Shown one piece after another: positions 30,125 through 61,545 of a stretch of DNA of 64,000 nt; within the stretch, counting starts at the first letter, position 1; each line of letters begins with the position of its first letter. The notes beneath the pieces were generated by a model. The model saw only the letters and a list, made by a program, of their open reading frames with translations, was not told the origin of the DNA and made no database searches. Made by a program: the position numbers and the translations under genes. Where the stretch lies: positions 135,150 through 199,149 of the forward strand of contig JACPKL010000005.1 of the NCBI GenBank assembly GCA_016187035.1, written 5' to 3'. Origin of the DNA: Candidatus Daviesbacteria bacterium. Its GTDB lineage: Bacteria; Patescibacteriota; Microgenomatia; Daviesbacterales; UBA10151.

Positions 30125-30211
30125 ATTTTATGACGATTTTAGGGTATATTATTAAAAAGGTCAAGAAAACATTGTAATCACTTGCAAATTGTTATATTCT
30201 TTTGTAGAAAG

Positions 30212-30832: not shown

Positions 30833-30843
30833 GGATTCCCATA

Positions 30844-43891: not shown

Positions 43892-45781
43892 ATGAAGAGT
43901 TTACTAGATAAAAAGAATTTACTCGTAATATCATTTTTACTTTCATTAACGATCCTTTTAAACGGATTAGTTTTTTTAAATCAACTAAATTACGGTTTTA
44001 GAGATGTCGATTGGCAGGTACTTTATTATTTTAAACTTTTTGGCAAATTATCTTTAAATCATTTATTAAAAGAAATTCAAGTTTTGGGAGTATATATTAC
44101 AGAATCATATTACGTAGGGTTTCTTGAGCAGTTAATAGGTTTGGATTTTTCGCGTTTGCATCTTGTAACTCAGCTTCTCAAGGTAATATCTGCAATTTCT
44201 GTCTATTTAGCAGTTTTAACAATCTTCAAAAAGAAATTGCTGGCATTTATAACCAGTCTGATTTATACAATTTCATATACACATGCGGGAGTGCTTTTTC
44301 AGCTTTCTTCTGGAGGATATTTCTTAGCCACAATTTTTATGAATTTATTTTTAATCTCATATTATAAAAGTTTTCATTATAGGAAAATCAACGAATTTCT
44401 GATTTCCATTATTTTACTCATTGTAACATTTATACTGAAACCAGAGAGAATGTATCCTCTAATTATTCTTATTTCCATTATTGAATTATTTGTTATTATT
44501 TTAGGCAAATTTAAAAAGGAGAGACTGGTTATTTTTTTGCCACTCATTATTCTTTATCCTTTTTATTTTTTATTGTTTTCAAAGGGAATACCTAGTGGTT
44601 TTGCTCCAGGTCAATTCCTTTTGGGTGCAACTGTCAAAATTAAAGGTATTTTAAATGGGAATCTACAGCTATTATTAGAACCTTTTGCTTCCTTAGGGAG
44701 TATCTTTTTATATGGTGAATACTGGAAAATGCTGGGCCAGTTAAATTTCCAGGATTTTCCACAATTTATATCTTCTTTAATATTCGGTCCTATTCTTAGA
44801 TTAGGGTTTATATCGTTAGTGCCCTTTTTTGTTATTGGTAAAAAATCTCTTAAGTTAATATTTAATATTTTAGTATCAGTGTTGCTGTTTGGAATAATAG
44901 TTTATTTATTTAATTTTAATTGGCAACATTTGGTAACACCAACACGTATTCACTTTGACCCAAACTTGATTGCAATACCATCTATCTTAGGTTTCTATGT
45001 TTTAGTCCTAAATTGCATGCTTCTTATTGATTGGTTAAAAAACAAAGATCGAATATTAATCCCGCCAATACTTGGTATTGCTTTCTCCTTCTTATTTATT
45101 TTATTAACTTGGATTTCCTCAGATATATTATTAATATTCATGGGTCCGCAAAGGTATTTAAGTATCCCATCAATCGGAACCAGCATTTTTATTTCAGGGT
45201 TTTTGGTTATAGCTTTTGATAGATTAAAAAAAATAAAATTTACTAAACAATTTAGCTGGATTATATTTTTATTTTTGGTGCCGCTATTTATTATCAACTA
45301 CCAAGTAGCGAATAAGTTTTTTGAAGATGAGTTAAATTTTGCTGGAGCAAAAGGGATAGATCAAACTAGAATGAAAAATAAATTACGTTTGCTGATGAGA
45401 GGGATAGATACACAAGATAAATCTTTATTTTATTTTGATGAAACTCAAGACCGAAATAATGCGTACTTTAATGAGGGAACAGTATTAGCGGGGTTTGAAT
45501 ATTGGACGAAATTGAACGAAGATGGGACTCTGAATGATTTACCTACACCGGGAATGATAAGAAGCACTCGTCAATGTCCAGAGCATACCCACCTAAGTTG
45601 TATAAAAGTTTTAAAGGATGGATTAAGGATCGAGAATGGAGATAAAGGGGTTTGGTATGCAGATTCAATTCGAGGTAATATACCAAATTTTTATAAACTA
45701 AATAATTTTCATGCATATAGGTTTATTAACAAGGATATTATTGATATTAGGGATGAGGTTTTAAGAGAAGTGGGTTTATGA
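43892..45781 (+). CDS. PMT_2/ArnT-like GT-C polytopic membrane protein, NFYAF-tail family member 5
   Basis: 629 aa. RDVDWQVLYYF, LIGLDFSRLHL, KPERMYPLI, IDWLKNKDR, and the tail NFYKLNNFHAYRFINKDIIDIRDEVLREVG. Confidence 0.65.
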   Translation: MKSLLDKKNLLVISFLLSLTILLNGLVFLNQLNYGFRDVDWQVLYYFKLFGKLSLNHLLKEIQVLGVYITESYYVGFLEQLIGLDFSRLHLVTQLLKVISAISVYLAVLTIFKKKLLAFITSLIYTISYTHAGVLFQLSSGGYFLATIFMNLFLISYYKSFHYRKINEFLISIILLIVTFILKPERMYPLIILISIIELFVIILGKFKKERLVIFLPLIILYPFYFLLFSKGIPSGFAPGQFLLGATVKIKGILNGNLQLLLEPFASLGSIFLYGEYWKMLGQLNFQDFPQFISSLIFGPILRLGFISLVPFFVIGKKSLKLIFNILVSVLLFGIIVYLFNFNWQHLVTPTRIHFDPNLIAIPSILGFYVLVLNCMLLIDWLKNKDRILIPPILGIAFSFLFILLTWISSDILLIFMGPQRYLSIPSIGTSIFISGFLVIAFDRLKKIKFTKQFSWIIFLFLVPLFIINYQVANKFFEDELNFAGAKGIDQTRMKNKLRLLMRGIDTQDKSLFYFDETQDRNNAYFNEGTVLAGFEYWTKLNEDGTLNDLPTPGMIRSTRQCPEHTHLSCIKVLKDGLRIENGDKGVWYADSIRGNIPNFYKLNNFHAYRFINKDIIDIRDEVLREVGL

Positions 45782-45804: not shown

Positions 45805-47121
45805 ATGCTAACAAAAAATAATACAATTTATGATGTGGTTATTATAGGTGGACTTGGGCATGTTGGTCTTCCGTTAGGGATTGCTTTTGCCGAAAAGGGT
45901 CTTAAGGTATGTTTGTATGATATTGATAAAAATAATGGTGAAATGGTTAAAAAAGGTCAGATGCCTTTTATAGAGTATGGAGCGCAGGAAATATTGGAGA
46001 AGGTTTTAAAGGCTGAAAAATTATTTATATCCTTTGATACTAAAGATATTTCTAAATCTAAATACGTAATAGTGACCATTGGTACTCCGGTGGATGAGCA
46101 TTTAACTCCTAGAACTAGAGCTTTTTTGGAGTTTTTTGAAAGCATAAGAGAGTATTTAACTTCAAGCCAAATAATAATTGTCAGGAGTACAGTTTACCCC
46201 AATACTTGTGAGCAATTATTAAGAATGCTTAGTAATGGCAAAAGCTGGCATATAGCATATTGTCCTGAGCGTATTACACAAGGTTATGCAATTAAGGAGT
46301 TGAGAGAACTTCCACAGGTTATTGCCGGATTAAGTGATCACGCAATAAACAGTGCAGCTGCTTTGTTTAGCCTAATTGCTCCCAAAATTATTAAAACATC
46401 AATGGGAGAGGCAGAACTGGTTAAGTTGTTTTCAAATGCTTGGAGGTATATTCAATTCTCCATGGCGAACCAATTCTATATGATTTCACATAAATTTGGA
46501 GTTGATTATGAAAGAGTGAGATGGGCTATGAAAGAGGGTTATGAAAGAGCTGCTAATCTCCCATCAGCAGGGTTTGCAGCAGGACCATGTCTTTTAAAAG
46601 ATACTATGCAGCTGGCAGCATTTGATGTGAATAATTTTTTGTTGGGACATGCTGCTATGATGGTTAACGAAGGCCTACCAAATTTCATTGTCGAAAATTT
46701 AAAAAAGAGATATGATTTATCCGAAAAAAAGGTAGGAATTCTAGGCATGGCTTTTAAAGCAGATATTGATGATACTAGAGATTCTTTATCATATAAGCTT
46801 GGCAAGATATTAAGATTTAATGGTGCTCAGGTTTATTATTCGGATGAATTTGCCAAAAACCCAACATTTATTTCTAAAGAGAAATTAATCGAAAATAGCG
46901 ATGTAATAATTGTTGCTATTCCTCATTCTAATTATAAAGGTATTGTTATTCCGGAAAGCAAAGAGGTAGTTGATTTATGGGGTATTGTTAAGGGTGGCAA
47001 AAGAGAGCTTCCTCAAGGATACATTGCCTCAGAATATACTTCAGTAAATTTTTTTAATTCCGCATTTTCGCAAACTGTTCGAATAAATAAACCCCTTAAA
47101 AATAAAAAATTTCTTAGATGA
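45805..47121 (+). CDS. UGDH-family nucleotide-sugar dehydrogenase (WecC/Cap5O-like)
   Basis: VVIIGGLGHVGLPLG Rossmann loop, GFAAGPCLLKD catalytic-Cys motif and LGMAFKADIDDTRDS. Confidence 0.8.
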   Translation: MLTKNNTIYDVVIIGGLGHVGLPLGIAFAEKGLKVCLYDIDKNNGEMVKKGQMPFIEYGAQEILEKVLKAEKLFISFDTKDISKSKYVIVTIGTPVDEHLTPRTRAFLEFFESIREYLTSSQIIIVRSTVYPNTCEQLLRMLSNGKSWHIAYCPERITQGYAIKELRELPQVIAGLSDHAINSAAALFSLIAPKIIKTSMGEAELVKLFSNAWRYIQFSMANQFYMISHKFGVDYERVRWAMKEGYERAANLPSAGFAAGPCLLKDTMQLAAFDVNNFLLGHAAMMVNEGLPNFIVENLKKRYDLSEKKVGILGMAFKADIDDTRDSLSYKLGKILRFNGAQVYYSDEFAKNPTFISKEKLIENSDVIIVAIPHSNYKGIVIPESKEVVDLWGIVKGGKRELPQGYIASEYTSVNFFNSAFSQTVRINKPLKNKKFLR

Positions 47122-48095
47122 ATAAAAAATTTTTAGTTACAGGTGGCACAGGTTTTATTGGTAGCGCTATTGTTAAATCCTTGATCAAAACAGGTTACTT
47201 TGTCAAAGTTTTAGATAATCAATCCAGAGGATCAAATAGGAGATTAAAAGAAGTTGAAGGAAGGTTTGAAATGATCAAGGGAGATATTAGAAATATGAAT
47301 ACAGTACAAAGAGCTTGTAAGGGAATAGATAGTGTGATTCATCTTGCCTATATTAATGGGACAGAGTTTTTCTACACAAAACCAGAATTGGTTTTAGAGG
47401 TGGGGGTTAAAGGAATGATGAATGTTCTGGATGCTTGTATTAGCAACAATATTGAAGAAATCCTTCTTGCATCCAGTTCGGAAGTTTACCAAACACCAGC
47501 AGTAATACCGACTTCTGAAACAGTTCCGCTAACAGTTCCTGACCCACTGAATTCCAGATACTCTTATGGAGGAGGAAAAATCATTTCTGAGCTTTTAACA
47601 ATAAATTATGGTAGAAAGTATTTTAGAAAGGCAATTATTTTTAGACCACATAATGTATATGGTTCTGATATGGGGTGGGAGCATGTAATACCACAGTTAA
47701 CTCTTAGAGTTAGAAAATTAGTTAAAGATAGTAAAGTTATTAATTTACCTATTCAGGGAACCGGAAAAGAGACCAGAGCATTTATTTATATTGATGATTT
47801 TGTGACAGGATTTAATAAAATTTTACAAAAAGGAAAGCATCTTGAGATATATAATATTGGAGTAATGGAAGAAACCTCCATTCAAGAATTAATTTTGGAA
47901 ATTGGGAAAATTTATGGTATAAAAATCAAAATTGTTCCTGGCAAATTAACTCCCGGAAGTACTCAAAGAAGATGTCCTGATATTTCTAAATTAAAGAAAT
48001 TGGGTTTTAAACCAAAATTTGATTTAGTGATGGGTTTACAAGAAACAATCCAATGGTATAATGACTTCGCCCATTTACAATTTAAAAATGACTAA
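47118..48095 (+). CDS. NAD-dependent nucleotide-sugar epimerase/dehydratase
   Basis: FLVTGGTGFIGSAIV, ASSSEVYQ and YSYGGGKIISE (YxxxK). The start overlaps the upstream stop (ATGA). Confidence 0.75.
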   Translation: MNKKFLVTGGTGFIGSAIVKSLIKTGYFVKVLDNQSRGSNRRLKEVEGRFEMIKGDIRNMNTVQRACKGIDSVIHLAYINGTEFFYTKPELVLEVGVKGMMNVLDACISNNIEEILLASSSEVYQTPAVIPTSETVPLTVPDPLNSRYSYGGGKIISELLTINYGRKYFRKAIIFRPHNVYGSDMGWEHVIPQLTLRVRKLVKDSKVINLPIQGTGKETRAFIYIDDFVTGFNKILQKGKHLEIYNIGVMEETSIQELILEIGKIYGIKIKIVPGKLTPGSTQRRCPDISKLKKLGFKPKFDLVMGLQETIQWYNDFAHLQFKND

Positions 48096-49353
48096 AGGAT
48101 TGAAATCTGTTTTTGGTACAGGAAACAGTTTAGTAATAGCAGAGTGTCAGATCTGTGGCAGCAGTAATTTAAAATCTATTTTATTCCTCGGGTATCTTCC
48201 CCCGGTTAATCAGTTGCATCCGATCGGCGCAAAACCTAAAGAGCAACCCAGTTATCCGGCCCAGCTTTTATATTGTTCTAAGTGTCATTTAGTACAACTG
48301 GGATTAGCAGTAGACCCTCAAATAATTTTTCCCAAGGAATATCCGTACACCAGCGGTACCACAAAAGTATTAAGAGATAATTTTGCCGATCTTGGGAAAG
48401 AAGTAAGAAAATTGATTGGTCTGAAGCCAGATGATCTAGTTGTTGATATCGGTAGCAATGACGGTACGCTACTTAGTAACTTTGTCCAACATGCTAAGGT
48501 TTTAGGAATTACCCCCGAGAATATTGGTAAATTGGCAATTGCTAAAGGTATTCCAACGGTACTTGATTATTTCAGAATCGAAGTAGTTGAACAAGTTAAA
48601 AAGGAGTATGGCAAAGCAAAAATTGTTACTGCGGCAAATGTTTTTGCCCATATAGAAAACGTTAACGAAGTGTTAGATAATATAATTTCACTTTTAAGAT
48701 CTGACGGTGTATTTATTTCAGAATCTCATTATCTTTACCCGCTGATTAAAACGGTTCAGTATGACACTATTTATCATGAGCATTTAAGATACTATTCTCT
48801 AATCAGTCTAAAGTATTTATTAAAAAGGCATGGTTTGGAAATTTTCCACATCAAGCAAATTCCTTCCCACGGGGGGTCAATCAGAGTATATGCAGCTAGG
48901 CTAGGTATCTATAAGAAAGACAAAAGTGTTTCCGAAATGCTACAAAAGGAAAAAGAGGCAGTAACCAATATAAGCAATTTACTAAAATTTAAAGATAAAG
49001 TTGTATTATCTAAATTAGGATTACAAAAGATTCTCCTTGATATAAAGAAAAAGAAAAAGAGAATCTTTGGAGTAAGTGCTCCTTCCAGAGCGAGTACTTT
49101 AATTAATTACTTAAGGTTGGATCAGGATATTTTAGATTGCGTGGTAGAAATAAAAGGCTCTTATAAGATTGGTAAATATATCCCAGGAACTTTAATTCCC
49201 ATTCTTGATGAGCAGGAATTATTTAATAAGCAGCCTGATTATGCCTTGCTTTTATCCTGGCATATTGCTGAAGAATTAATACCAAAATTAAAAAGTAAGG
49301 GATTTAAAGGAAAATTTATTATCCCATTGCCAAAGCCTAGAATTGTCAGATAA
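48088..49353 (+). CDS. NDP-hexose C-methyltransferase (TylC3-type), second paralog
   Basis: CQICGSSNL...LGYLPPVNQL...LLYCSKCHLVQL is a Cys4 site, followed by VVDIGSNDGTLL, YDTIYHEHLRYYSL and ALLLSWHIAEELIPKL. Roughly 45% identical by eye to the ORF at 23018. I prefer the ATG at 48088. Confidence 0.75.
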   Translation: MTKGLKSVFGTGNSLVIAECQICGSSNLKSILFLGYLPPVNQLHPIGAKPKEQPSYPAQLLYCSKCHLVQLGLAVDPQIIFPKEYPYTSGTTKVLRDNFADLGKEVRKLIGLKPDDLVVDIGSNDGTLLSNFVQHAKVLGITPENIGKLAIAKGIPTVLDYFRIEVVEQVKKEYGKAKIVTAANVFAHIENVNEVLDNIISLLRSDGVFISESHYLYPLIKTVQYDTIYHEHLRYYSLISLKYLLKRHGLEIFHIKQIPSHGGSIRVYAARLGIYKKDKSVSEMLQKEKEAVTNISNLLKFKDKVVLSKLGLQKILLDIKKKKKRIFGVSAPSRASTLINYLRLDQDILDCVVEIKGSYKIGKYIPGTLIPILDEQELFNKQPDYALLLSWHIAEELIPKLKSKGFKGKFIIPLPKPRIVR

Positions 49354-49354
49354 A

Positions 49355-51253
49355 TTACTTCAGGCCCAAGGTTGATTTCAGCTCATCAGTAATATTATAA
49401 AGATCTCTGTTAATAAATCTAAATGCATAAAAATTCTCCGTTTTGTAAAATATATTATCAAACTGTAGTCCTTTGACGCCATTTTCTTTAACCACAGCCT
49501 CTTTCAGTTTCTCCGGGCAGAATTTCCCACTACCTCCACATAAGAAATAACTTCGTATTAGCTTAGGAGTTTTTGTTGGCAGAATATGATTTTCTCTAAA
49601 CATAATCCAAAAGTTAAATCCGGCAAGTACGGTTGTTTCATTAAAGTAGCTGTTGTTGGGATCCTGAGATTCATCAAAGAAAAATACAGATGGTTCTGAC
49701 TCGGATAAATTCTCAATATACGATAAAAGTTTTCCCTTCATCCGTATATGTTCAGATGCCCTTGTTCCCGCAGAATCTAACTCATTTGCAAAATAATTAG
49801 AAATGGATTGATTATAAATTGTAAATAAAGGGAGAAGTAATAATAGAGGGATGAATGATATGGGTTTGAGGATTTTGATTGATCGTATTTTATCGTAAGC
49901 TAAAACAAAAGTTATTGCAAGAACAAGACTGATTCCTATAGCAGGAATAGTAAGATAGCGATGTATACCCATAAATACTAAGACTAAATCAGCAGGTAAC
50001 CAAGTTAAAAATATGAAAATGAATGCAAAGAGGGGACCCATAAATAAAGCCAAAGTAAGATTATTCCTTGTTTTACTATTAATCCATTCAAGCAGGAATG
50101 CGCATGCTAAAGATAAAACAAACATCCCGATCAAAGTAGGAGGTATTACAAAACCGGGATCAAAATACATTCTTAATCTGCCCCAAGCATCAACTAAATC
50201 AGGATTAATAGTTTCTCTACGGGTAGCTAGATAAAAAGAAGAAATTAGCAGTGGAATCAAAAATATAAAGGTTGTTATTATAAACCGACGGGGTTTCTTT
50301 GATAACAAGAGTCCAGCGAGTAAGGTAATGCTGCCAAATATAAATAAAGGTCCTTCAAGCAAAAAGCCCAAATAATCGATCAGACTATTTAGCTTAATCT
50401 CTCCAAAAGATATGGTATATTCTCTTGGCAAAAACATACTACCTAAGGCCGCAAAAGGTGTAAAGAGCAGATGCCAGTTACCTTCGGCAATTTTTTGGAA
50501 AAGCAAACGGCTCGTACCTAAAAAAAAATTCATCGAAATATTAAGGATAACGGGTTTTATTATTGTCAAAACAATTGCTGGAGAAAAAAGTAATAGCAGC
50601 CTTTTTAGTCCTAAAATTACAGAGCTTTTGGAAAATTTCTGAGTGAATATGTAAAAAAATTCTCCTACGATAACGAATATTGCCAATGGGTACATTCTTT
50701 CTGTTGCAAAAAGTAAAGCGAGGTAAAAGGAAACTATTGCAGATAGGATTAATCCCCAAGCTAATCTGTTTTTTTGAGCGAGATACCAATACAACCAGAT
50801 AAATATATTCATAAATGCGACTCCAAGATAATTTATGGTAGTCATAACTGTATAAAGAGCTGCTATAGAAGTAAAAGAAAAAGCATAGATTAGTGTTCCT
50901 ACTATGGCAATTAACTTTCTTTTGGTGATTATAAAAAAAATAGGAAAAACAGTTATTGTGGAGAGAAATTTTAAGACATAAGCAACTTGATTATATTTAT
51001 AATAATCTAAGCCAAAGAGAGAATGCTGAATACCTATAAAATAATATTGGGTAGTATATACTCCAGCTTTAGTAAAAAATTCTAAAAAACTTTCCAGCGA
51101 AAAAGGATTGTTTATATATTTATATTGAAGCAGACCTGCCCAATCAATATCTGCAAATCCATAGAGAAGATGCGGTTTTAAAATAAGGTATTGTAAAATT
51201 GCAACTGGGAGAAAAATGCTTAGGAAAAATAGTAAAACGGGTGAACGTCTCAT
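49355..51253 (-). CDS. PMT_2/ArnT-like GT-C polytopic membrane protein, NFYAF-tail family member 6
   Basis: 632 aa. ADIDWAGLLQY, LFGLDYYKYNQ, ATERMYPLA, LEWINSKTRNN, and the tail IFYKTENFYAFRFINRDLYNITDELKSTLG. The start overlaps the stop of the upstream GT2 (ATGA). Confidence 0.65.
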   Translation of the reverse strand: MRRSPVLLFFLSIFLPVAILQYLILKPHLLYGFADIDWAGLLQYKYINNPFSLESFLEFFTKAGVYTTQYYFIGIQHSLFGLDYYKYNQVAYVLKFLSTITVFPIFFIITKRKLIAIVGTLIYAFSFTSIAALYTVMTTINYLGVAFMNIFIWLYWYLAQKNRLAWGLILSAIVSFYLALLFATERMYPLAIFVIVGEFFYIFTQKFSKSSVILGLKRLLLLFSPAIVLTIIKPVILNISMNFFLGTSRLLFQKIAEGNWHLLFTPFAALGSMFLPREYTISFGEIKLNSLIDYLGFLLEGPLFIFGSITLLAGLLLSKKPRRFIITTFIFLIPLLISSFYLATRRETINPDLVDAWGRLRMYFDPGFVIPPTLIGMFVLSLACAFLLEWINSKTRNNLTLALFMGPLFAFIFIFLTWLPADLVLVFMGIHRYLTIPAIGISLVLAITFVLAYDKIRSIKILKPISFIPLLLLLPLFTIYNQSISNYFANELDSAGTRASEHIRMKGKLLSYIENLSESEPSVFFFDESQDPNNSYFNETTVLAGFNFWIMFRENHILPTKTPKLIRSYFLCGGSGKFCPEKLKEAVVKENGVKGLQFDNIFYKTENFYAFRFINRDLYNITDELKSTLGLK

Positions 51254-52200
51254 TTTTTATCTAGAAAACTATTCTTCACAATTTCTTCCACTATATAAAC
51301 CGGGCGGGCTTTAGTTTCTTCTACAATAACTTGAATGTATTTTCCAATAATACTAAGAGCCAAAAGTTGGATTCCTCCAAATAGAACAATTGAGAATATT
51401 ATCAACTTGGATACTTCAATTTTTTGCCCAAATAAAATGAATGAAAATAAATAAATAATTACGAATAAGAAAGAGAGGGTTACGATAAGCAGACCCGTAT
51501 ATACAATAATATCCAGCGGTAAATAAGAGAATCCGTAAAAGCTTTTCTCTGCATGATGGATATAACCTAATAAATTATAAGAGCTTTTTCCTCTTTGTCT
51601 AGGGCGGCGGTGATAATTCACATAAGTTGTTTTAAATCCTACCCAGGCTCTTAGACCTCTATTAAATCTATGTTTTTCCGGAAGCTTTTTAATAGCATTC
51701 ATGACCTTTTTATCTAATAAGGCAAAACTGCCTGCATCAACAGGAACTTCAATATTGGAAATACTTCTAAAGATTCTATAATACAATTTCCGGATTTTAG
51801 TCATTAAGAAAGTATCTGCTATTTTCGTCCTTATACCAACTACTACATCAAATCCCCTTTCCCATTCTTTAATAAAACTTAGGATTATATTTGCAGGATC
51901 TTGTAAATCTCCCTCAAAACATACATATGCATCTCCTTGCGCATAATCTAAAGAAGCTTGAATTGATGCCTCGTTACCAAAATTCCTGGATAAGAAGATA
52001 CCAGCAACACCTTTATCTTTTTTAGTGATCTTCCTTATCTCTTCCCTGGTATTATCAGTTGAGCCATTATCTACAAAAATGAAATCATAATTGTAGTTTT
52101 TATTTTTATTTGTAACCTCAACTAGCTCTTTGTAGGCAGGCGCCACATTTAGTTCTTCATTGAAGCAGATAACTCCAATTGAGATGAGTTTCTTTTTCAT
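51250..52200 (-). CDS. GT2 polyprenyl-phosphate glycosyltransferase, GtrB/ArnC/CsbB type (two C-terminal TM helices)
   Basis: ISIGVICFNEELNV, CFEGDLQDP, and a C-terminal LIIFSIVLFGGIQLLALSIIGKYIQVIVEETKARPVYIVEE, which is the family-typical ...GGiql..lGiiGeYi..i..e.k.RP.yiv.e. Confidence 0.85.
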   Translation of the reverse strand: MKKKLISIGVICFNEELNVAPAYKELVEVTNKNKNYNYDFIFVDNGSTDNTREEIRKITKKDKGVAGIFLSRNFGNEASIQASLDYAQGDAYVCFEGDLQDPANIILSFIKEWERGFDVVVGIRTKIADTFLMTKIRKLYYRIFRSISNIEVPVDAGSFALLDKKVMNAIKKLPEKHRFNRGLRAWVGFKTTYVNYHRRPRQRGKSSYNLLGYIHHAEKSFYGFSYLPLDIIVYTGLLIVTLSFLFVIIYLFSFILFGQKIEVSKLIIFSIVLFGGIQLLALSIIGKYIQVIVEETKARPVYIVEEIVKNSFLDKK

Positions 52201-52203
52201 AAA

Positions 52204-52944
52204 CTATTTTTTTCCTACTACAAGAAGGGATACCCCAATGGGCGGAGATAACCATTTTACAGACCAAACATCCAGATAAAAAATTAAAGTTTGAATTTTA
52301 TTGATAAATCGGTTGTATACTATTAACTCGGATCCCCAATCCTTTTCTTTAAACATAGGAAGTTTTTGTAATAGTCTAATAAGTAAGATAGGAGGAAACA
52401 TTAGATAATTAAAGTATTTAATGTCTCTAATAACAAATTGAGTATCCTTGACTTTTGTGGCAAGCATCTTTTTATCATATCGGCGGATATGGTGAGATTT
52501 AGTGTCAAGGTGACTCCATAATAGTTTGATTGCAGGAGTGAATAATATTAAATGTCCTCCCGGAGCAAGTACTCTGTATAACTCTTTCAAATACTCCTTA
52601 TCTTTTGTAACATGTTCTATAACGTCTAAAGACGTAATAATATCAAAGTAATTATCTTTAAAGGGGATTTTTAAGCCATTTTTTAAAAGACGTATTTTGC
52701 TGAAACCTCTTTTTTTGCAATATGCAACAGCTTTTCTTTCAGTGTCAACTCCGTATACTTTTCCAAACTTGCTTAAAAGGTACAAGTTATATCCTGTGCA
52801 GCATCCGGAATCTAATATTCTTAAAGGGGTTTTTTGAGGTAAGTCTTTTAGAATAGCTTCAAGCAATTTTCTCCTGCCTTTAAACCACCAATGATTGGCT
52901 TCATGTTTGTATAAAATGTCATATCTTCTGGATTCCATAAGCAA
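52204..52944 (-). CDS. Class I SAM-dependent methyltransferase
   Basis: ILDSGCCTGYNL is SAM motif I, followed by FDIITSLDVIEHV and GGHLILFTP. It is the first gene of a methyltransferase, GT2, GT-C minus-strand unit. Confidence 0.75.
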   Translation of the reverse strand: MLMESRRYDILYKHEANHWWFKGRRKLLEAILKDLPQKTPLRILDSGCCTGYNLYLLSKFGKVYGVDTERKAVAYCKKRGFSKIRLLKNGLKIPFKDNYFDIITSLDVIEHVTKDKEYLKELYRVLAPGGHLILFTPAIKLLWSHLDTKSHHIRRYDKKMLATKVKDTQFVIRDIKYFNYLMFPPILLIRLLQKLPMFKEKDWGSELIVYNRFINKIQTLIFYLDVWSVKWLSPPIGVSLLVVGKK

Positions 52945-53025
52945 ATTTTAGATGTCCATTATACTAGCATATTTATTGTACTATCGCTATGTTTGTTGTA
53001 TATTTTCTTCTATAAATAAATCATT

Positions 53026-53892
53026 ATGAAAAAGGTCTCGGTGATTATACCAACATATAATAGTTGGAATACTCTCAAAAGTTGTATTGCCTCAGTTCAA
53101 AATCAAATTTATAAAGCAAAAGAAATAATAGTAGTTAACAACGGATCTAGTGATGGAACTGCAGTAAAGGTCAAAAAAGAGTTTCCTAAAGTTAAACTAA
53201 TTAATTTAAATAAAAATACAGGTGTAACAGGAGGAAGAAATACAGGTATAAAGCATGCTAATTCCTATTCTGATTATTTATTCTTTTTTGATCATGATAT
53301 GGTAGCAGAAAGGAATATGCTTGCCGAGCTTGTGAAAGTTGCAGAATTAAGTAAAGAAATAGGAATTGTTACCCCAAAAATTTATTACTTCGGAAATAAA
53401 AAAAGAATTTGGTCAGCAGGAACAGGAATAAATCTATGGACGGGTCAGATTCTATTTAGAGGCGGAGAAGACGTTGGTCAATATGAGAAGGTGGAAGAGG
53501 TGCAGGTAGCACCTGCAGCACTTTTAGTAAAAAGAGAGTTGATAAAGAAATTAAAATGTTTTGACAATCATTATTTTGTCACGTATGAGGATACTGATTT
53601 TTGTTTCAGAGCGAGAGAGATAGGTTTTAAAACATTTTATGCGCCAAAGGCTTTAGCCTACCATAAAATATCATGGTATTCCAAAGATGATGTAGATAGA
53701 GTATTATCAAGAGCTTACTTTGTAGGGAGAAACAGATTGATCTTCATGAAAAAGTTTGGTAAAAATATTTTCATTTTTTCTGCGTTTTTACCGGTTTTCT
53801 GTGTTTATTATTTATACAAAGCTGCTAAAAATAAAAATCTGAATGGATGGTTTGAGTTTATGAAGGGAACATTTGACGGGTTTTTGGATTAA
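53026..53892 (+). CDS. GT2 glycosyltransferase (WbbL/rhamnosyltransferase-like), C-terminal TM helix
   Basis: VSVIIPTYNSWNTLKSCIASVQNQ, FFFDHDMV (DxD) and FVTYEDTDFCFRAREIGF. The C-terminus IFIFSAFLPVFCVYYLY is hydrophobic. Confidence 0.75.
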   Translation: MKKVSVIIPTYNSWNTLKSCIASVQNQIYKAKEIIVVNNGSSDGTAVKVKKEFPKVKLINLNKNTGVTGGRNTGIKHANSYSDYLFFFDHDMVAERNMLAELVKVAELSKEIGIVTPKIYYFGNKKRIWSAGTGINLWTGQILFRGGEDVGQYEKVEEVQVAPAALLVKRELIKKLKCFDNHYFVTYEDTDFCFRAREIGFKTFYAPKALAYHKISWYSKDDVDRVLSRAYFVGRNRLIFMKKFGKNIFIFSAFLPVFCVYYLYKAAKNKNLNGWFEFMKGTFDGFLD

Positions 53893-53899
53893 ATTTTTG

Positions 53900-56800
53900 A
53901 TGGGCCTTAGGTTAAAATACATACTACTACTTCTGTCTCTGCCTACATTATTAATCCTGATTTGGTTTCGGGATGGTAATCTGATGGCAACAGGAGAGTC
54001 GGGTATTCCCTTTTATGATCTTAGCATCCAACATAATATTAATAAGTCAGCTTGGGCTGCTTATACTTTAGGTCACCCAATCAATATCAGTGTTGCAGGT
54101 GCGCCTACTTATTATTTCTTATCTCTTATCCAGAGAGTTGGAATCCCTTCCCCTATTATTCAAGCTGCGTTTCTATGGTTTGTATTGGTTTGTTCTGGAT
54201 TTGGTATATACTTTTTAACAAAACAGGTCTTTCCGGAAATTCAGAAAAAGTACTTAATTTTCTCAGTACTTTTTTACTGGTTTAATCCTATCTCCTTGGT
54301 AAATGTATGGAACAGATTTCTAAATAATTTCTTATTTTTTTATGCTCTTCTACCAATCTCTCTTTTTCTATTTCTTAAGGGTATAAAAACAAAACAATAT
54401 AAATACGCCATTGTAATTAGTTTAGTTTCAACTGTATTCTCGTATGCATTTACCTCAATAGCATTTGACATGATTCTTTGGATAGTATTTATATACACAA
54501 CCTTTTTTTATTCAGTTGTAAGTAAAGAGAATAATAAATTCTTTGTATTTAAATTCTTCATACTCACTTTTGTTTACTGGTCTCTTGTAAACTTATGGTG
54601 GATCGGGCAAGTCTTAAGCTATATGGGACAAGGCAGTTTTACGTTAGTTTCTTCGAGCTCTTTTATTAGTACAGATAATTACTACACTTTTTATGTGCTT
54701 TCTCAAAGATTAGGTAAGCTTATAGACCTCCTAAGATTTAAGCATTCATCGTTTTTTGCAGATATTGAACTTATCAACTGGGTTAAAATATATCAATTTC
54801 CTTTAATAACTTTTTTTGAATTTCTATTTACTGGTATACTTTTATTTCCAATAGTTATCAAAAGAAAGCATCCAGAAGTGCTATTTTTAGGCCCCCTTTT
54901 TTTATTATCTATTTTTTTCACAAAAGGCAATAATCCTCCCTTTGGTGAAATTTTTAATCAGGCTTTTATAAGTTTTTCCTTTCTACAAGTTTTTAGAAAT
55001 CCTTTTGAAAAAATAGGGTTTATCTTACCTCTTTCTGCAGCTCCGCTTTTTTGTATGGGAGCTTTTTCGATAATTAGAAGATTAAATAAAAGATGGGGGA
55101 ACGTGATGTTTTTTTTAATTCTCTTTTGGCTGGTTATTATCTGGGGAGGACCTTTTTGGAGTGGACTTGTTTTTACAGGTGGGCCAATTCCAACAAACAA
55201 TTATAAAGTCGGTTACCATATAAAAGTACCTGATTATTATAAACAAGCCGCGGATTGGTTGGCTTCTCAAAGCAGAAATTTTAGATTAACGGTTCTTCCA
55301 ATTGGAGGTGAGGGTATTACGTATTCTTGGGTAAAAGGATACTCAGGGGTTGAACTATCAAATCAACTCTTACCAGTCACTTCAGTATCCTTTAGTACGA
55401 ATATTCCGTTTTATGAACAAGTCTCTATGAATCTAGAAAGGCTTTTTCTTACCAAGAATGAATTTCCAAAAGTTATGGATATATTAAATAGTAAGTATTT
55501 AGTGGTCAGATCTGATATAGATTGGAAAACTCGTAACATGAGGAATCCTCAAGTGATTGATAATAGAATTGAAGCTTTGAAACCTTCTCCTTATAAGTTT
55601 AATAATGTTAGGACGTTTGATAAGTTATCTTTTTGGGAATATTCAGACTGGGAGGATAGAACGATTTATCCTGCAAAGAGAATTGTTAAGGCAAGCGGCG
55701 CTTTAAAAATAGATGATATATTACAGTTAGATAAGGAGGATGTCCTTTATAGTAATGATAATAAGATTATAAGCCAGGATTTAGTTAAAGCAGAGATTAT
55801 TCATCCTTCGTATAAGTTTGAATTGGGCAGTAAGCGAACACATACTGATTTTAGCTTTACGGATGACCTGATCTTCCCAGCTGTAAAAGTTCTTCCCTCT
55901 CATAGGTTTTATTCACTTATACTACTTAAAGAGAGAATTGAAGATTTGTCGATTAGAAATAGAGAGGAACTTCTTGTAAGAAAAATATCTCTTTTAGGAA
56001 AAAGATTGATAGAAGCTGAAAAGGAGTTAGAAAGAGGCAATTTAAATGGAATGAAGATTTCTTTACTTGCTTATATTAAAAATCTACAAGAAGTTATTCC
56101 AAAGGTTCCAAACGTTGGTATAAAAATTAACAATCAATCAATAACCCAGGAGGAGCTATATATAGTCTTTAACAGACATGTTGAAAAGATTAGTAAATTT
56201 AAAAAGAATTTTCCGGAAAATGAAACAATAAAAGTAGCTGAAGAGACTTTAAAACATCTGCTAATCGAAAGAGGAATATCGCCTTATTTTGGATATCAAG
56301 ATAAACAAAGCTTTCCTATTAAAGGTAGAAAAGTTTATCAATTTTCCATAGATCATTCTGGAAATTACGAACTTCTTTTAGATGCAAAATCTTGGGATAA
56401 GTATTTTAGATTGTCTTGGAATGAGCCTTTATTGATTCAAATTGATGATAATATAGTTTATACAGATGCTGTTTTTAAAAATGACTATGTTTCTTTAGGA
56501 TCTTTTAATTTTAATAAAGGAAAACACGAGATTGCCTGGAACACCCCTAAAGAAATTAATCTAGTAGAAGTCCCGTCAGAGTTTACTCTTAATATCGGTC
56601 ACGGGGTAGCTGAGAAAACATTTGGAATAAATTCATTTGATCCCTATTCCTCTTATATTTTAAATTTTAATTATTTAATCAAAAAAGGTAGTGGTATAGA
56701 GGTAACCATAGAACAGAATAATGATAAATATAAAAAAGATAAAATAGATCCTAATTTTTTTAAGTATGCAGGACCAGATTTGTATAATTTTACAGATGTT

Positions 56801-57382
56801 AAACAACTTTCTGAGTATTTTCTTCCATTTTCTACTGCTGATTCGGCAAAACTGGTGTTTAAGGTAAGGCCTTGGAATAATTGTAAAGAAGCGCTTAAAT
56901 ATCTCGGGAATGAAAAATGTAATGAAGAACAAACAAAGAAGAGATTTGATATGCCAACTGAGGTTTTAATAAGTAATGTCTCCTTAAATAAAATTTTGAA
57001 AGAATCTCCATTTTTAGTTAAGAAGAATAATCAAGACTCTATACTTACTTTGCCAAATATCACTTATACAAAGATAAATAACTCAGAGTATAAAGTTAAA
57101 GTAAAGGATGCACAAAATCCATTTATTCTGGTTTTAAGTGAACTCTTTGATCCTGGATGGAAAGTATACTCAAGTTCTAATAAAGAGGTAGGTGAAGAGC
57201 ATTTTTTAGCAAACACCTACGCAAATGGTTGGTTAATTAATCAAAAGGGAAGTTATGATTTGATGATAAAATATGAACCTCAAGAAATATTAAAAAAAGG
57301 AGAGAATACGTCTATCTTGACTATTCTAGCAGGACTATTATTTTTGGGAGGGAGGTTTCTTTGTAGGAATGAAAAAAAATAA
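53900..57382 (+). CDS. Giant (about 1160 aa) AftD/YfhO-like GT-C membrane protein, paralog 3, with a ~420-430 aa extra soluble region
   Basis: The N-terminal half is collinear with the 738-aa ORF at 14173 (LFYWFNPISLVNVWNRFL, TKGNNPPFG...FRNPFEKIGF). The C-terminus PFILVLSELFDPGWKV...YANGWLINQKGSYDL is followed by a TM anchor. I prefer the ATG at 53900 to the TTG at 53873. Confidence 0.65.
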   Translation: MGLRLKYILLLLSLPTLLILIWFRDGNLMATGESGIPFYDLSIQHNINKSAWAAYTLGHPINISVAGAPTYYFLSLIQRVGIPSPIIQAAFLWFVLVCSGFGIYFLTKQVFPEIQKKYLIFSVLFYWFNPISLVNVWNRFLNNFLFFYALLPISLFLFLKGIKTKQYKYAIVISLVSTVFSYAFTSIAFDMILWIVFIYTTFFYSVVSKENNKFFVFKFFILTFVYWSLVNLWWIGQVLSYMGQGSFTLVSSSSFISTDNYYTFYVLSQRLGKLIDLLRFKHSSFFADIELINWVKIYQFPLITFFEFLFTGILLFPIVIKRKHPEVLFLGPLFLLSIFFTKGNNPPFGEIFNQAFISFSFLQVFRNPFEKIGFILPLSAAPLFCMGAFSIIRRLNKRWGNVMFFLILFWLVIIWGGPFWSGLVFTGGPIPTNNYKVGYHIKVPDYYKQAADWLASQSRNFRLTVLPIGGEGITYSWVKGYSGVELSNQLLPVTSVSFSTNIPFYEQVSMNLERLFLTKNEFPKVMDILNSKYLVVRSDIDWKTRNMRNPQVIDNRIEALKPSPYKFNNVRTFDKLSFWEYSDWEDRTIYPAKRIVKASGALKIDDILQLDKEDVLYSNDNKIISQDLVKAEIIHPSYKFELGSKRTHTDFSFTDDLIFPAVKVLPSHRFYSLILLKERIEDLSIRNREELLVRKISLLGKRLIEAEKELERGNLNGMKISLLAYIKNLQEVIPKVPNVGIKINNQSITQEELYIVFNRHVEKISKFKKNFPENETIKVAEETLKHLLIERGISPYFGYQDKQSFPIKGRKVYQFSIDHSGNYELLLDAKSWDKYFRLSWNEPLLIQIDDNIVYTDAVFKNDYVSLGSFNFNKGKHEIAWNTPKEINLVEVPSEFTLNIGHGVAEKTFGINSFDPYSSYILNFNYLIKKGSGIEVTIEQNNDKYKKDKIDPNFFKYAGPDLYNFTDVKQLSEYFLPFSTADSAKLVFKVRPWNNCKEALKYLGNEKCNEEQTKKRFDMPTEVLISNVSLNKILKESPFLVKKNNQDSILTLPNITYTKINNSEYKVKVKDAQNPFILVLSELFDPGWKVYSSSNKEVGEEHFLANTYANGWLINQKGSYDLMIKYEPQEILKKGENTSILTILAGLLFLGGRFLCRNEKK

Positions 57383-57692
57383 ATTATTACTACTTATATT
57401 TAAGTTAACATTGTTTATTATTCTGGTTAGTAGTCTAATTGTAAGAAATTATCAATCCACTATTTTTGATCAATTATTCTATTGGTGGATTTTGTTATTA
57501 ATGATTTTTATTGGATTAACATTACATTTCAAAAGCATTTTTTATTTATCGTCGGCCTTTATCTTGTTTTTTATATCAGCCATATTAACCGTAGTTGGGT
57601 CAAAGGAAATAGCAGAAGGAGTAATGCGCATAAGTCTTATTGGTTGGTTAATCGGATTAATTCAATCTGTGGTTGAATATAAGATTTCCTAG
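57369..57692 (+). CDS. Small membrane protein (107 aa, ~3 TM), member B of the four-copy family
   Basis: Overlaps the end of the giant GT-C gene by 14 nt. Shows 29/69 ungapped identities to the ORF at 16389. Shares F33-D34-Q35 and the IA(E/D)xxxR motif at identical positions with the ORF at 61204. Confidence 0.6.
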   Translation: MKKNKLLLLIFKLTLFIILVSSLIVRNYQSTIFDQLFYWWILLLMIFIGLTLHFKSIFYLSSAFILFFISAILTVVGSKEIAEGVMRISLIGWLIGLIQSVVEYKIS

Positions 57693-57742: not shown

Positions 57743-60700
57743 ATGTCTCAAAAGCTAGTATTTTTTCTATTAAGTATTTTAATCACCATAAGCTGGTTTA
57801 AAAGCGGATTATACTATGGTGGAGCAGAGGTAGGGATATCGCCATATTATAACCCTGCCCGATATTTAAATATCCAGCAATTTATCTGGTGGGCAGATGT
57901 TGCTCCGGGGACACTGGTGCCTCAATTTATAAGCGCAGTTCCTTTGTATTTTATTTTGTCTCTTTTACAAAATCTCCTTTCCCCTTTGATGTTACAAGCC
58001 CTAGTCTTCTTTTGCCTGCTATTTTTAATGGGGTATGGCATGTATCTTTTTACCCTTTCATATATAGGTAAGGATAAGGTTTTTTATGCGGTTATTGCTG
58101 GTTTATTTTATATGTTTAACTCCTATATGTTGGTGGAGGTTTGGCACCGCTTTTTATATGGAGGGTTTTTTTTGGCTGCTTTTTTACCTATCCTGGCATT
58201 ATTTTGGAAGCTTTGGATTCAAAAAGGTAACTTTGTTCATCTTGTAATTCTACTTTTGGTAAGCCTGATTTCCTCATATATGTTCGGAAATCTAACATCT
58301 TTTATTGCCTTATGGATAGCATTTTTTCTACTTACTTTGGCAGAAGCGGTTTTCCCCTGGCAGGGAAGAATAAACTTAGTCAGAGTAACTAAATGGTTCG
58401 TAATTGGGTTGACATTTTTTATTTTAACCAACCTTTGGTGGTTAATCCCGGTAGCTAAAGTATCAACGCAAGTTTTACCAAATCAGCATTCAAGTGAAGA
58501 TAATATCAGCACACTTGTTAATATTAGTAAACAGACAATCTTGCCTTATATCCTGCAGTATGCTAACCCATTTTATTTATTCTATACCCAGGAACTTGGA
58601 AGTATCTATAAAAATACTATTTTTCTTATCCTCCCATGGATTCCGGCAATTGTCATATTTCTTGGGTTATTGGTAGTACTGAAGAATAAAAAGCTGGCTG
58701 TTTTAGGATTATTTTACCTAATCACTATTATTATTGCTAAGGGTGCTGCTAATCCTTTTGGGTATCCTTATATCTGGGGGTTTATGAACACCTTTTTTAT
58801 AGGAGTGATCAGAAATCCTTTTGAGAAATTAGGTGTTTTATTACCTTTTTTCAGCAGCACACTTTTTGTAATAGGTCTAGAGTATATTTTTCTTTATACT
58901 ACCAGAAGATTTGGAAAGTTTATTTCTCGGTTAGCGATATGTATTATTCTAATAAGTATATTGATTTTTGCATTCCCTATGTTTACTGGAAGAGTTTTTA
59001 ATAAACCAGACTATCCACTGCTTGTTCAAGTTCCGGATACCTACAAGCAGGCAGATAACTGGTTTAAAAAACAAAAAGATATAGAAGGTAATATTCTTCA
59101 TTTACCTTTTACGAATAATGATGTAGTTACATATAATTGGGAACATGGTTATCATGGGGTGGAAGTAAATGAAATTCTTTTTACATCCTTGCCTTCTATC
59201 ACAAGAAATGTGGGAATAAAAAGGGTAGATGACACGCTTAGAAGTCTTGCATTTATTTTTAACAAACCGTTTTTAAATAATGAACAAATTCTTAATTTGC
59301 TTCAATCGTTTAATGTTTCATATATTGTATTTCATAAAGACATGAGATGGGATGATGTTTCAACATACGGGAAAAATATCAAACTAAATGATCTGTTTGA
59401 GATTGAGAATACTCTTAACAGTTTAGATTTTTTAGAAAATAAAGCATCATTTGGAAGCCTGATTATATATAAGATTAAGGATAGTTTTTATAAACCTAAA
59501 ATAATATTTAGCAATAATTATGATTTAGTAGATGCAGGAGAAAGCAATATTATGCAAACACTTACGTTTTCTAAAATTAACAGTCAGATAACTGCTATGG
59601 GTGAAGAAAAAGATAATGTACTATGGGAGAATTCTTCTCAGGTTTTAATATTTCCAAGAACAATTTTATATACATGGGAATACTCAAAAGAGGTTTTAGA
59701 CAGTATGTTAAATAAAAGTATTATTGATCCTAATGATGATGCACTCCCTTTTAATCAGCTTAAGTTAGCTAAACAACGATTATTCTTGCATTCTGGGGAA
59801 TTGTTAAGTGAGACATTAATCGATAAAATAATGTCAGCAAATAATTTAATATTAGAATTAAACAAATATAGAATAAATCAAAATATTCCTCCCCAATCTC
59901 TTTTAAAAAGTTATGATGATCAAATAAATGCAATTTTTACAAGCGGATTTGATGGTTCAAGCATCCAACGCATACTAAGATCTTTACTTGCAAAAGTGTT
60001 CACCCTGCATCTTTATGTGCTAGAACGTTTTTATAACTCAGGAGATACTGATAATCATGTGTTTGCAAAAGAACTTTATGATAGATTGAACACATACTTA
60101 ATTAACAATAAGGTTTTACCCAAGTATTTTTCTGTTGGGAAAGAGACCAACGGACAGTCTCAGAGAAGAGTGCATAGCTTTTATCTACCCAAGAGTGCGT
60201 CTTATGAACTTTTAATTACGGATAATAGTATGTTTCCTTTATACCCAGATATCATCTCAAAATTACATATCAATTTGGACGGAAATCCTCTTTCAGTAAC
60301 ACCCTCCAGTAGAGACGATTTCACTCATTTGACAGAAGTTGAATTAGATAAAGGAGTACATGAAATCAGTTATGTAATGTATCCTTCATCCAACTTGGTG
60401 TCGAATCTTAATGAATTTAAGTTGGAAGGAGTCAGTCAGTTAGTAAATAATCAAATTTTGAAGTTTACAGCAAATCCTCAAGTAGGATCAGCTGCAACTA
60501 TGGTGTTGGATAAGTTAAATGGAGGTGATATTTATGAAATATCCTTTGAGGCACTAACTGATAACGCAGATAAATTCTACATAGAGATGACGGAGGATAC
60601 TGAAGGAGATAATGTAGTAGATAATTGCACTAAGACTACATGCTATCCTTTGGAGTTAGTATCAACTAGTAAGGATTGGCAGAGAGTTTCTTTTGTTACA

Positions 60701-61207: not shown

Positions 61208-61545
61208 ATATAACTAAAAAAGTTATTTTAACGCCAGTAGTATTTTTATTGTCTGGATTTATATTTGCGTTTTTGGATAATGGGATAGAAATAGAAAGGT
61301 TTGATCAAATCATACAACCTATATTTTTTGCGGTTATTCTAACCTCTGATATTTTGTTACCTAGTTTTAGGAAGAATTTAATAATTTTCTCATGTTGTTT
61401 ACTAGTTCTAATGATTTTAATTTATTTATTGCAAAATCTTATGATTGCTGATTGGATTGGAAGATTAGGTTTTGGAATATTATTTATAACTATTTTTTCC
61501 TATACCCCTGAAATTATAAAGAGAGGGTATCTTGAAAAATTCTAA
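61204..61545 (+). CDS. Small membrane protein (113 aa, ~3 TM), member C of the four-copy family
   Basis: The start overlaps the stop of the giant GT-C gene (ATGA). RFDQ at residues 32-35 and IADWIGRLGFGILF align without gaps to member B. Confidence 0.55.
   Translation: MNITKKVILTPVVFLLSGFIFAFLDNGIEIERFDQIIQPIFFAVILTSDILLPSFRKNLIIFSCCLLVLMILIYLLQNLMIADWIGRLGFGILFITIFSYTPEIIKRGYLEKF

Follow-up and report, generated by a model that had tools for sequence, protein, structure and literature searches.

Extracytoplasmic glycosylation by way of polyprenyl-phosphate sugars is, to our knowledge, universal; the crossing of the membrane by the lipid-linked sugar and the number of GT-C transferase families are poorly understood. 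Single donors, such as dolichyl-phosphate mannose (Dol-P-Man) and decaprenyl-phosphate arabinose, feed several transferases, and sugars linked to undecaprenyl phosphate (Und-P) can be modified between the synthase and the flippase, as in the deformylation by ArnD and the deacetylation by NaxD/LgmC. In the archaeon Haloferax volcanii, the Agl system comprises the Dol-P-Man synthase AglD, the Wzx-like flippase AglR, the GT-C enzyme AglS and AglP, a methyltransferase that methylates the hexuronic acid of a Dol-P-linked tetrasaccharide. For bacterial operons of the CsbB/YfhO type, the flippase GtcA is encoded apart from the synthase and the transferase and serves several systems (PMC7389260). Here, we describe a three-gene operon in a glycan island of a Candidatus Daviesbacteria bacterium, located in a stretch of 64,000 nucleotides (contig JACPKL010000005.1, positions 135,150 to 199,149; hereafter, the window), which encodes a class I S-adenosylmethionine (SAM) methyltransferase (MT), a family 2 glycosyltransferase (GT2) of the GtrB/ArnC type and a 632-aa polytopic membrane protein predicted to be a GT-C enzyme. 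Systems that combine a polyprenyl-phosphate sugar synthase with a GT-C transferase are a known kind; among them, the locus appears to be set apart by an uncatalogued GT-C family, by a conserved, uncharacterised MT partner of the synthase and by the lack of GtrA. We estimate a probability of about 65% that the operon is a lipid-carrier-dependent extracytoplasmic glycosylation module.

The operon and its three predicted proteins

The ORF map and the sequence bear out the layout described in the initial annotation, that is, three minus-strand open reading frames (ORFs), a gap of 3 nt (ttt) between the MT stop codon (TAG) and the GT2 ATG at 52200, and an ATGA shared by the stop codon of the GT2 and the start codon of the 632-aa gene (Table 1). 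This overlap suggests translational coupling of the GT2 and GT-C genes. Because each of the three ORFs has many full-length homologues, we take them to be real genes and not chance ORFs, and, given that the MT homologues all begin with ‘ME..’, translation of the MT almost certainly begins at the ATG at 52938, not at the TTG at 52944. A scan of positions 48900-53200 for promoters and terminators yielded nothing above the shuffled expectation, with one weak sigma-70-like match (53002-52975, minus strand) at a level no higher than in shuffled sequence. This null result is compatible with a single transcription unit starting in the 81-bp divergent intergenic region, which is likely to be the promoter region of the MT operon, and is no proof of it. 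The GC content of the window is ~32%.

The assignment of the GT2 as a GtrB/ArnC-type polyprenyl-phosphate glycosyltransferase, rather than a processive synthase, appears well supported. Pfam provides a generic match only (Glycos_transf_2, E = 7e-23). In contrast, a phmmer comparison with the Synechocystis GtrB (PDB 5EKP) gave an E-value of 3.3e-63, with residues 6-307 of the query aligned to 28-329 of the chain and an identity of ~35% over 301 columns, and, in the PDB sequence search, the ArnC structures matched over residues 5-312 (E = 1.7e-24) and the Pyrococcus Dol-P-Man synthase (DPMS) in the catalytic domain alone. Among NCBIfam models, PgfS ranked first (5.6e-67), with ArnC at 9e-31; both matches are full length and both lie under the equivalog cut-offs (226 bits against 500 bits for PgfS). 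Hydrophobic peaks at residues 224, 243 and 267 align with the juxtamembrane and transmembrane (TM) region of GtrB, and, together with the full-length 5EKP and ArnC matches, they uphold the two-TM tail that the initial annotation had assigned to this protein. That annotation had also raised the possibility of a processive polysaccharide synthase, which we examined by motif and architecture and rejected: the sequence contains no QxxRW motif, its only TM segments are the C-terminal pair, so that there is no multi-TM channel, and it has the GtrB architecture and a length of 316 aa. We further mapped the functional residues of GtrB (PMC12698845) onto the window GT2 by alignment. D96, Q98, D99, R122 and R197 of GtrB are identical in the window GT2, the first three corresponding to D98, Q100 and D101 of the DxD/Q region; K180 is replaced by Arg, and W207 by Tyr, as in 37 of the 44 MT-linked homologues. 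In GtrB, the phosphate of the polyprenyl carrier is bound by the basic residues R122, R125, K132, K180 and R197. Where GtrB has D-A-D, the window GT2 has E96-G-D98 (51907-51915), a variant to which we return below.

The 632-aa protein is 100% identical to HYW41_02170, a hypothetical protein of a Candidatus Daviesbacteria bacterium. As a single sequence it matches nothing in Pfam, NCBIfam or the PDB, and as a profile nothing in the PDB. Its five paralogues in the window and ten distant relatives likewise lack Pfam and NCBIfam matches, except for one sub-threshold match to DUF7657 among the distant relatives. Thus, no sequence link of this family to a known GT-C family (PMT_2, ArnT, YfhO, STT3, AftD and others) was found with Pfam, NCBIfam, PDB or hhalign searches. 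The AlphaFold (AF2) model, of high confidence (pLDDT 91.5, pTM 0.90), provides the link at the level of the fold: in a Foldseek search, the top 19 matches were all GT-C enzymes (ArnT, DPY19 and STT3/PglB/AglB), with ArnT the best (E = 2e-4), and all matches with a probability of at least 0.9 were GT-C, the next class, major facilitator superfamily (MFS) transporters, reaching 0.18 at most. Residues D37, R186 and Y188 are invariant in the six window paralogues and at least 90% conserved across 39 sequences. D37, followed by W38, lies in the acidic first outer loop after TM1, at the start of a short helix in the model. The protein has a basic N-terminus (MRRS), ~11 TM helices and a C-terminal alpha/beta domain (approximately residues 500-632) with a Cys572/Cys579 pair, and the basic N-terminus and the number of TM helices place this domain outside the membrane. 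The basic N-terminus, the acidic D37 loop and the ~11 TM helices with the C-terminal domain fit a GT-C topology. The protein is therefore best read, with reasonable support from the predicted fold, as a GT-C enzyme outside every described GT-C sequence family. The ‘GT-C’ label of the initial annotation thus holds for the predicted fold, which matches solved GT-C enzymes, and for the conserved D37, but not for membership in a sequence family.

When 1.84 billion representative proteins (clusters at 50% identity) were searched exhaustively with a profile, 215 relatives of the 632-aa family were recovered at E <=1e-30, a number that rose to 1,733 at E <=1e-3. The few named sources among them are Daviesbacteria and Microgenomates, and we found no literature on GT-C enzymes in Microgenomates. 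This is a sizeable GT-C-like family without domain-database coverage, with six copies in one glycan island of a candidate phyla radiation (CPR) bacterium.

The MT matches Methyltransf_11 in Pfam (1.5e-21), along with Methyltransf_25 and Methyltransf_23. The protein is soluble and lacks any hydrophobic segment of TM grade (maximum KD19 hydropathy 1.36), and the family alignment shows an N-terminal HWW..RR and a C-terminal P-x-G-x-S motif as characteristic of the subfamily. The AF2 model (pLDDT 91.8) is a Rossmann fold, the nearest folds being the sugar O-methyltransferases RebM and AtmM and phosphoethanolamine N-methyltransferases (PEAMT). The RebM and AtmM folds, together with the linkage to GtrB, GtrA and GT-C genes, are suggestive of a sugar hydroxyl as the methyl acceptor, and from the conserved gene linkage we infer that the role of the MT in the operon is the methylation of a sugar. 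Given a soluble MT and the cytoplasmic location of SAM, methylation before transfer, as proposed in the initial annotation, is a reasonable reading. No characterised MT linked to GtrB or GtrA was found in the literature. The window encodes a second MT (13236-14105, minus strand), between two large membrane proteins, which is of the Methyltransf_23 type and has a Cys-rich N-terminal segment and a hydrophobic C-terminus. The Rossmann core is all that it has in common with the family of the operon MT, and its end, SPLGLIVLKKK, resembles the P-x-G-x-S tail of the latter.

Linkage of the methyltransferase to GtrB across bacteria

We searched for relatives of the MT in one genome per GTDB species and found 541, the best 80 of which belong to Acidobacteriota, Solirubrobacterales and other Actinomycetota, Gamma-, Delta- and Alphaproteobacteria, Cyanobacteria, Chloroflexota, Heliobacteria, Rokubacteria, Saccharibacteria and others; Firmicutes and Patescibacteria are among the phyla represented. 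Gene linkage was counted in 56 loci anchored on the MT, each from a different species and flanked by 2 kb or more in both directions. The set lacks phylogenetic independence, Solirubrobacterales being over-represented. A full-length GtrB-type GT2 lies within 2 kb of the MT in half of the loci (28/56), mostly on the MT strand and often overlapping it or tens of bases away. A GtrA-family gene is also present in 18 of these 28 MT-GtrB loci, in the Gammaproteobacteria and Solirubrobacterales between the MT and GtrB, and none is found nearby in the other 10. If any GT2 or large membrane protein (at least 7 TM helices) within 2 kb is counted, the number rises to 40/56, and both GtrB and a large membrane protein occur within this distance in 10/56. 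Among metagenomic contigs, one from Patescibacteria has the gene order GtrA-GT2-MT-PMT_2, and others have GT2-MT-membrane protein, MT-membrane protein or GT2-MT. Chance adjacency of the MT was rejected given the breadth of the linkage across phyla. Judging by these gene neighbourhoods, ten or more phyla retain the MT-GtrB pair, in many cases with a GtrA gene lying between its members. We found no description of this cross-phylum partnership of the MT subfamily with GtrB/GtrA, which could be tested in cultivable hosts, among them cyanobacteria, Sphingomonadaceae and Solirubrobacterales. In three loci (L068, at 1034-3187, L064 and L074), a GtrA-like segment lies within ORFs of 649-774 aa that adjoin GtrB and the MT; these could be true fusions or long-ORF artefacts of high-GC DNA.

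The initial annotation had suggested that the co-occurrence of the three-gene unit be checked in other genomes, and, as a conserved unit, it did not survive this check: it is not kept even among Daviesbacteria (L088, L093 and L094). In L093 and L094, the MT-GtrB pair is retained, surrounded by arrays of ~620-aa paralogues, and the next gene is on the opposite strand (L093) or encodes a 248-aa GT2 (L094). In L090, an MT is coupled straight to a 598-aa membrane protein, and the two together are convergent with a set of dehydrogenase, GT2, short-chain dehydrogenase/reductase (SDR) and C-methyltransferase genes. The evolutionarily conserved core, as far as gene order indicates, is the MT with the polyprenyl-phosphate sugar synthase, and the adjoining transferase varies. 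A conserved MT-GtrB pair with a variable neighbour fits one donor serving several GT-C paralogues.

Flippase candidates and the surrounding glycan island

To look for a flippase, we listed all ORFs of at least 60 aa with at least two predicted TM helices in the window and scanned them with Pfam, except for three ORFs of 62-88 aa (16389-16601, 32252-32518 and 43518-43706), which were covered only by a six-frame search with a GtrA HMM. No GtrA (PF04138), EamA/small multidrug resistance (SMR) or MOP protein was found among the Pfam-scanned membrane ORFs of the window. The GtrA HMM, built from 21 cassette GtrAs, gave a best E-value of 0.41 in the six frames of the window and of 0.43 in 15 kb of flank and five related Microgenomates loci, compared with ~1e-41 for the positive controls L007 and L008. 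The flank was obtained from two 100%-identical contigs that add 6.6 kb to the left and 8.6 kb to the right of the window, for a total of ~79 kb. The only small four-TM ORFs (57369-57692 and 61204-61545) were considered as hidden GtrA/SMR-like flippases, a reading for which no support emerged: they have no Pfam or NCBIfam match and showed no likeness to GtrA (hhalign probability 0.15) or to each other.

A Wzx/MOP gene is, however, found ~2 kb outside the window on its right side, ~14 kb from the operon, where it heads a run of GT2, MT, GT2, GT1, GT2 and PMT_2-type GT-C genes. This is the only recognisable candidate for a lipid-linked-sugar flippase in the ~79 kb. MOP/MATE proteins are the proposed flippases of other three-component systems, although direct flippase activity has been shown for none of these proteins (PMC11127046), and the csbB/yfhO operon of Bacillus subtilis relies on gtcA encoded elsewhere (PMC7389260). 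In the light of the unlinked gtcA and of the MOP/MATE candidates in other systems, the missing GtrA/ArnEF gene is a correct but not unusual observation, with the nearby Wzx/MOP protein as a plausible alternative flippase. The claim of the initial annotation that a recognisable flippase is lacking thus stands for a GtrA- or ArnE/F-like gene in the operon, the window and the 15 kb of flank, and does not extend to the Wzx/MOP gene just beyond. The possibility, raised with it, of a GtrA-family gene elsewhere in the operon was addressed by the GtrA scans of operon, window and flank, which found none.

Table 1. Features of the operon and of the surrounding glycan island (window positions)
Feature	Position	Strand	Evidence or remark
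Class I SAM methyltransferase (MT)	52204-52944	minus	ORF from TTG 52944; probable start ATG 52938 (244 aa)
GT2, GtrB/ArnC type, 316 aa	51250-52200	minus	GT-A domain, juxtamembrane helices and two C-terminal TM helices
632-aa polytopic membrane protein, predicted GT-C	49355-51253	minus	family without Pfam model
ATGA stop/start overlap, GT2 and 632-aa gene	51250-51253	minus	read from sequence
Divergent intergenic region, 81 bp, MT operon and GT2 gene 53026 (plus)	52945-53025		ORF map
NDP-sugar dehydrogenase	45805-47121	plus	Pfam, NCBIfam
SDR 4,6-dehydratase/epimerase-like gene	47118-48095	plus	Pfam, NCBIfam
NDP-sugar C-methyltransferase	48061-49353	plus	Pfam, NCBIfam
GT2, 240 aa, without TM tail	33831-34553	plus	5MLZ 5.2e-13, then GtrB, ArnC
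GT2, 238 aa, without TM tail	43061-43777	minus	5MLZ 6.1e-26 over residues 3-225
RmlD-like gene	42190-43071		among GT-C paralogues
Paralogue of 632-aa protein	34604-36475	plus	24-35% identity range
Paralogue of 632-aa protein	36472-38370	plus	24-35% identity range
Paralogue of 632-aa protein	38376-40280	plus	24-35% identity range
Paralogue of 632-aa protein	40289-42130	minus	24-35% identity range
Paralogue of 632-aa protein	43892-45781	plus	24-35% identity range
Large polytopic proteins	11148, 14173, 16841 (minus), 34604, 36472, 38376, 40289 (minus), 43892, 49355 (minus), 53873, 57743, 61542 (minus), 63232
Polysacc_synt/Polysacc_synt_3 (Wzx/MOP), 423 aa	L091 5356-6627, extrapolated to ~65,965-67,236		Pfam E = 4e-22

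The operon faces a convergent trio of genes for a nucleoside diphosphate (NDP)-sugar dehydrogenase, an SDR and an NDP-sugar C-methyltransferase, a candidate source of the donor sugar. The ends of the C-methyltransferase gene (49353) and the GT-C gene (49355) are one base apart, a spacing that leaves no room for a terminator. The trio also adjoins orthologues or paralogues of the GT-C gene in L088, L090, L093, L094 and L007. On the other side of the divergent intergenic region, the GT2 gene at 53026 (plus strand) resembles an ordinary rhamnosyl- or EpsD-type transferase in NCBIfam.

The initial annotation had noted two further juxtapositions of a GT2 with GT-C genes and assumed the same logic for them. 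The ORF map confirms both, with the GT2 at 33831 ahead of 34604, 36472 and 38376, and the minus-strand GT2 at 43061 divergent from 43892. The shared logic is plausible, as polyprenyl-phosphate sugar synthases are the best matches of these two GT2s. The top PDB match of both is 5MLZ, the Pyrococcus DPMS, whose catalytic domain is what the GT2 at 33831 matches, and GtrB/ArnC come next; in NCBIfam, the GT2 at 33831 matches dolichyl-phosphate hexose transferase (4.5e-17) and that at 43061 matches PgfS, ArnC and Dol-P-hexose transferase. They appear to be short DPM1-like forms without a membrane tail. Directly ahead of the GT2 at 33831 and three tandem GT-C paralogues lies a GDP-heptose-type pathway (29336-33762), with genes for a transaldolase, a GmhB-like phosphatase, an HddC-like nucleotidyltransferase, a GmhA-like isomerase and an HddA-like kinase; a second set of kinase, isomerase, phosphatase and nucleotidyltransferase genes is found just left of the window (L092).

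Overall, the window encodes ~13 large polytopic proteins (500-1169 aa), none of which reaches the Pfam threshold, with two sub-threshold AftD matches; this is an unusually dense concentration of probable GT-C enzymes. Behind each of the AftD-like giants (738, ~1132-1169 and 1154 aa) comes a small membrane ORF, the start of which overlaps the stop of the giant (window 14173-16601, 53873-57692 and 57743-61545; L088 1594-5305). These small ORFs (70 aa with 2 TM helices, 107 aa with 4 and 113 aa with 4) have no Pfam match and no likeness to GtrA, and an orthologue of the 107-aa ORF, 42% identical, occupies the equivalent place in another Daviesbacteria genome. They may be accessory subunits.

Proposed mechanism, alternatives and known systems

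Under the reading that we favor, the GT2 would transfer a single sugar from an NDP-sugar to polyprenyl phosphate at the cytoplasmic face of the membrane, a step for which homology provides strong support. The soluble MT would then methylate the cytoplasmic sugar, on the nucleotide or, more attractively, on the lipid, as the gene linkage suggests. The polyprenyl-phosphate sugar would be flipped by a protein encoded outside the operon, which could be the Wzx/MOP protein ~14 kb away, a GtrA encoded elsewhere in the genome or an unrecognised protein. Finally, as the fold and the context indicate, the 632-aa GT-C enzyme would transfer the sugar to an extracytoplasmic acceptor by means of Asp37 in the first outer loop. 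With six GT-C paralogues and seven or more further large proteins of GT-C-like type in the island, the synthase probably feeds several transferases. The parts of this scheme differ in strength: from the sequence and model comparisons, the synthase is well and the transferase reasonably supported, and methylation and flipping are inferential.

Several observations weigh against this scheme. The alignment of the 632-aa family to five PMT_2 proteins by hhalign is weak (probability 18.5%). The fold neighbours of the MT are generic, soluble small-molecule methyltransferases, and the MT itself lacks a membrane segment and resides in an island rich in sugar-nucleotide tailoring genes, with other class I MTs and a C-methyltransferase, all of which would suit an enzyme whose substrate is the nucleotide sugar, or else a different cytoplasmic intermediate of the glycan, instead of the lipid-linked sugar. 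The MT would then be a further tailoring enzyme of a sugar-nucleotide pathway, placed first in the operon by happenstance. The pairing of the synthase with the GT-C enzyme would stand in this case, which we consider unlikely: across phyla, the MT subfamily tracks GtrB, GtrA and GT-C genes and not sugar-nucleotide genes, its genes frequently show direct translational coupling to that of the synthase or of a large membrane protein, and the C-methyltransferase co-occurs only in Patescibacteria loci and in one other, L072 (Actinomycetota). A different difficulty arises from L088, where a 64%-identical orthologue of the GT-C protein has no MT-GtrB pair within 8 kb on either side and adjoins instead a 248-aa GT2 and an RmlD-like gene, with the convergent dehydrogenase/SDR/C-methyltransferase trio kept. 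Because of this locus, the functional pairing of these three particular genes does not seem guaranteed. Along with the other genes that follow the MT-GtrB pair in L093 and L094, and with three synthase-like GT2s and the many large membrane proteins in 64 kb, it leaves room for the reading that the ATGA reflects compact packing, that the 632-aa protein receives its donor from another synthase, such as either of the DPMS-like GT2s of ~240 aa, and that the GtrB-type synthase supplies other GT-C enzymes. However, a stop/start overlap usually means co-expression and functional linkage, the adjacency of GT2 and GT-C genes is the rule in CsbB/YfhO, ArnC/ArnT and GtrB/Gtr* systems, and the 10 MT loci with both GtrB and a large membrane protein point the same way, so that we regard this separation of the two proteins as quite improbable.

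The active site of the GT2 also departs from that of GtrB. The first Asp of DxD (D94 of GtrB), present in all 44 MT-linked homologues, which come from other phyla, is Glu96 in the window GT2; D157 is replaced by Ser and K132 by Met; and R125 faces a one-residue gap in the multiple alignment and a Lys in the pairwise one. D94 is described as universally conserved and the likely catalytic base, and D157 as not conserved among related enzymes (PMC12698845). An enzyme that is catalytically altered or inactive and has a non-canonical role, for example as a scaffold that binds polyprenyl phosphate, would fit the ExD motif and the Ser at D157. Nevertheless, Glu retains the carboxylate, and the motif E-G-D-L-Q-D-P is identical in two other Daviesbacteria GT2 orthologues (78-81% identity), which suggests purifying selection on a working variant. 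E-G-D thus appears to be a conserved lineage variant rather than a sign of decay, and we give loss of the canonical function very little credence. Beyond the favored reading, a bolder proposal would be that MT-GtrB defines an undescribed class of donors, methylated polyprenyl-phosphate sugars with an on-carrier commitment step before export, which in Daviesbacteria are used by a new, lineage-specific GT-C family and cross the membrane without GtrA or SMR proteins; we hold this to be doubtful.

With respect to described systems, the operon adds a further case of a synthase and a GT-C enzyme without a linked GtrA; it does not overturn current models, and the main gain is better annotation and a simple experiment to which it points. 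It resembles the GtrA/GtrB/Gtr* systems of phage-mediated O-antigen glucosylation in Shigella and Salmonella in that the GT2 is colinear with GtrB, including the juxtamembrane and two TM helices, that a polytopic GT-C-like gene lies directly downstream and that a cytoplasmic synthase would be followed by an extracytoplasmic transferase. It differs from them in the lack of GtrA, the extra upstream MT, the GT-C family without a Pfam model, ExD in place of DxD and the host, a CPR bacterium with a presumed Gram-positive-like envelope. Teichoic-acid glycosylation by CsbB/YfhO of B. subtilis and GtlA/GtlB of Listeria offers the same combination of synthase and GT-C genes in an operon without a flippase gene, but YfhO and GtlB belong to recognised families that the 632-aa protein does not match, and those operons have no MT.

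In the ArnC/ArnD/ArnE-F/ArnT pathway of lipid A modification with aminoarabinose, the likeness extends to the full-length match of ArnC to the GT2, to ArnT as the top structural match of the 632-aa model and to the modification of the sugar on its carrier between the synthase and flippase steps, which is the role proposed here for the MT. Here, however, the modification would be methylation and not deformylation, ArnE/F-like SMR proteins are lacking, and the acceptor cannot be lipid A. The streptococcal GacI/J/K/L and Pgf (PgfS/PgfM1/PgfE/PgfM2) systems and the pentofuranose system of Citrobacter youngae (GT136) share with this locus a PgfS-like synthase, PgfS being the top NCBIfam match of the GT2, and a proposed flippase of the Wzx/MOP type, like the Polysacc_synt gene just past the window; the GT2 here falls under the PgfS equivalog cut-off, the GT-C families differ and those systems have no MT. 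For systems of this type, the proposed flippase is a Wzx/MOP/MATE protein and not GtrA (PMC11127046). The Haloferax Agl system, which differs in being archaeal and in the tetrasaccharide substrate of AglP, is alike in parts: both would combine a polyprenyl-phosphate sugar synthase, a GT-C enzyme and a Wzx-like flippase with a SAM methyltransferase whose substrate is a lipid-linked glycan.

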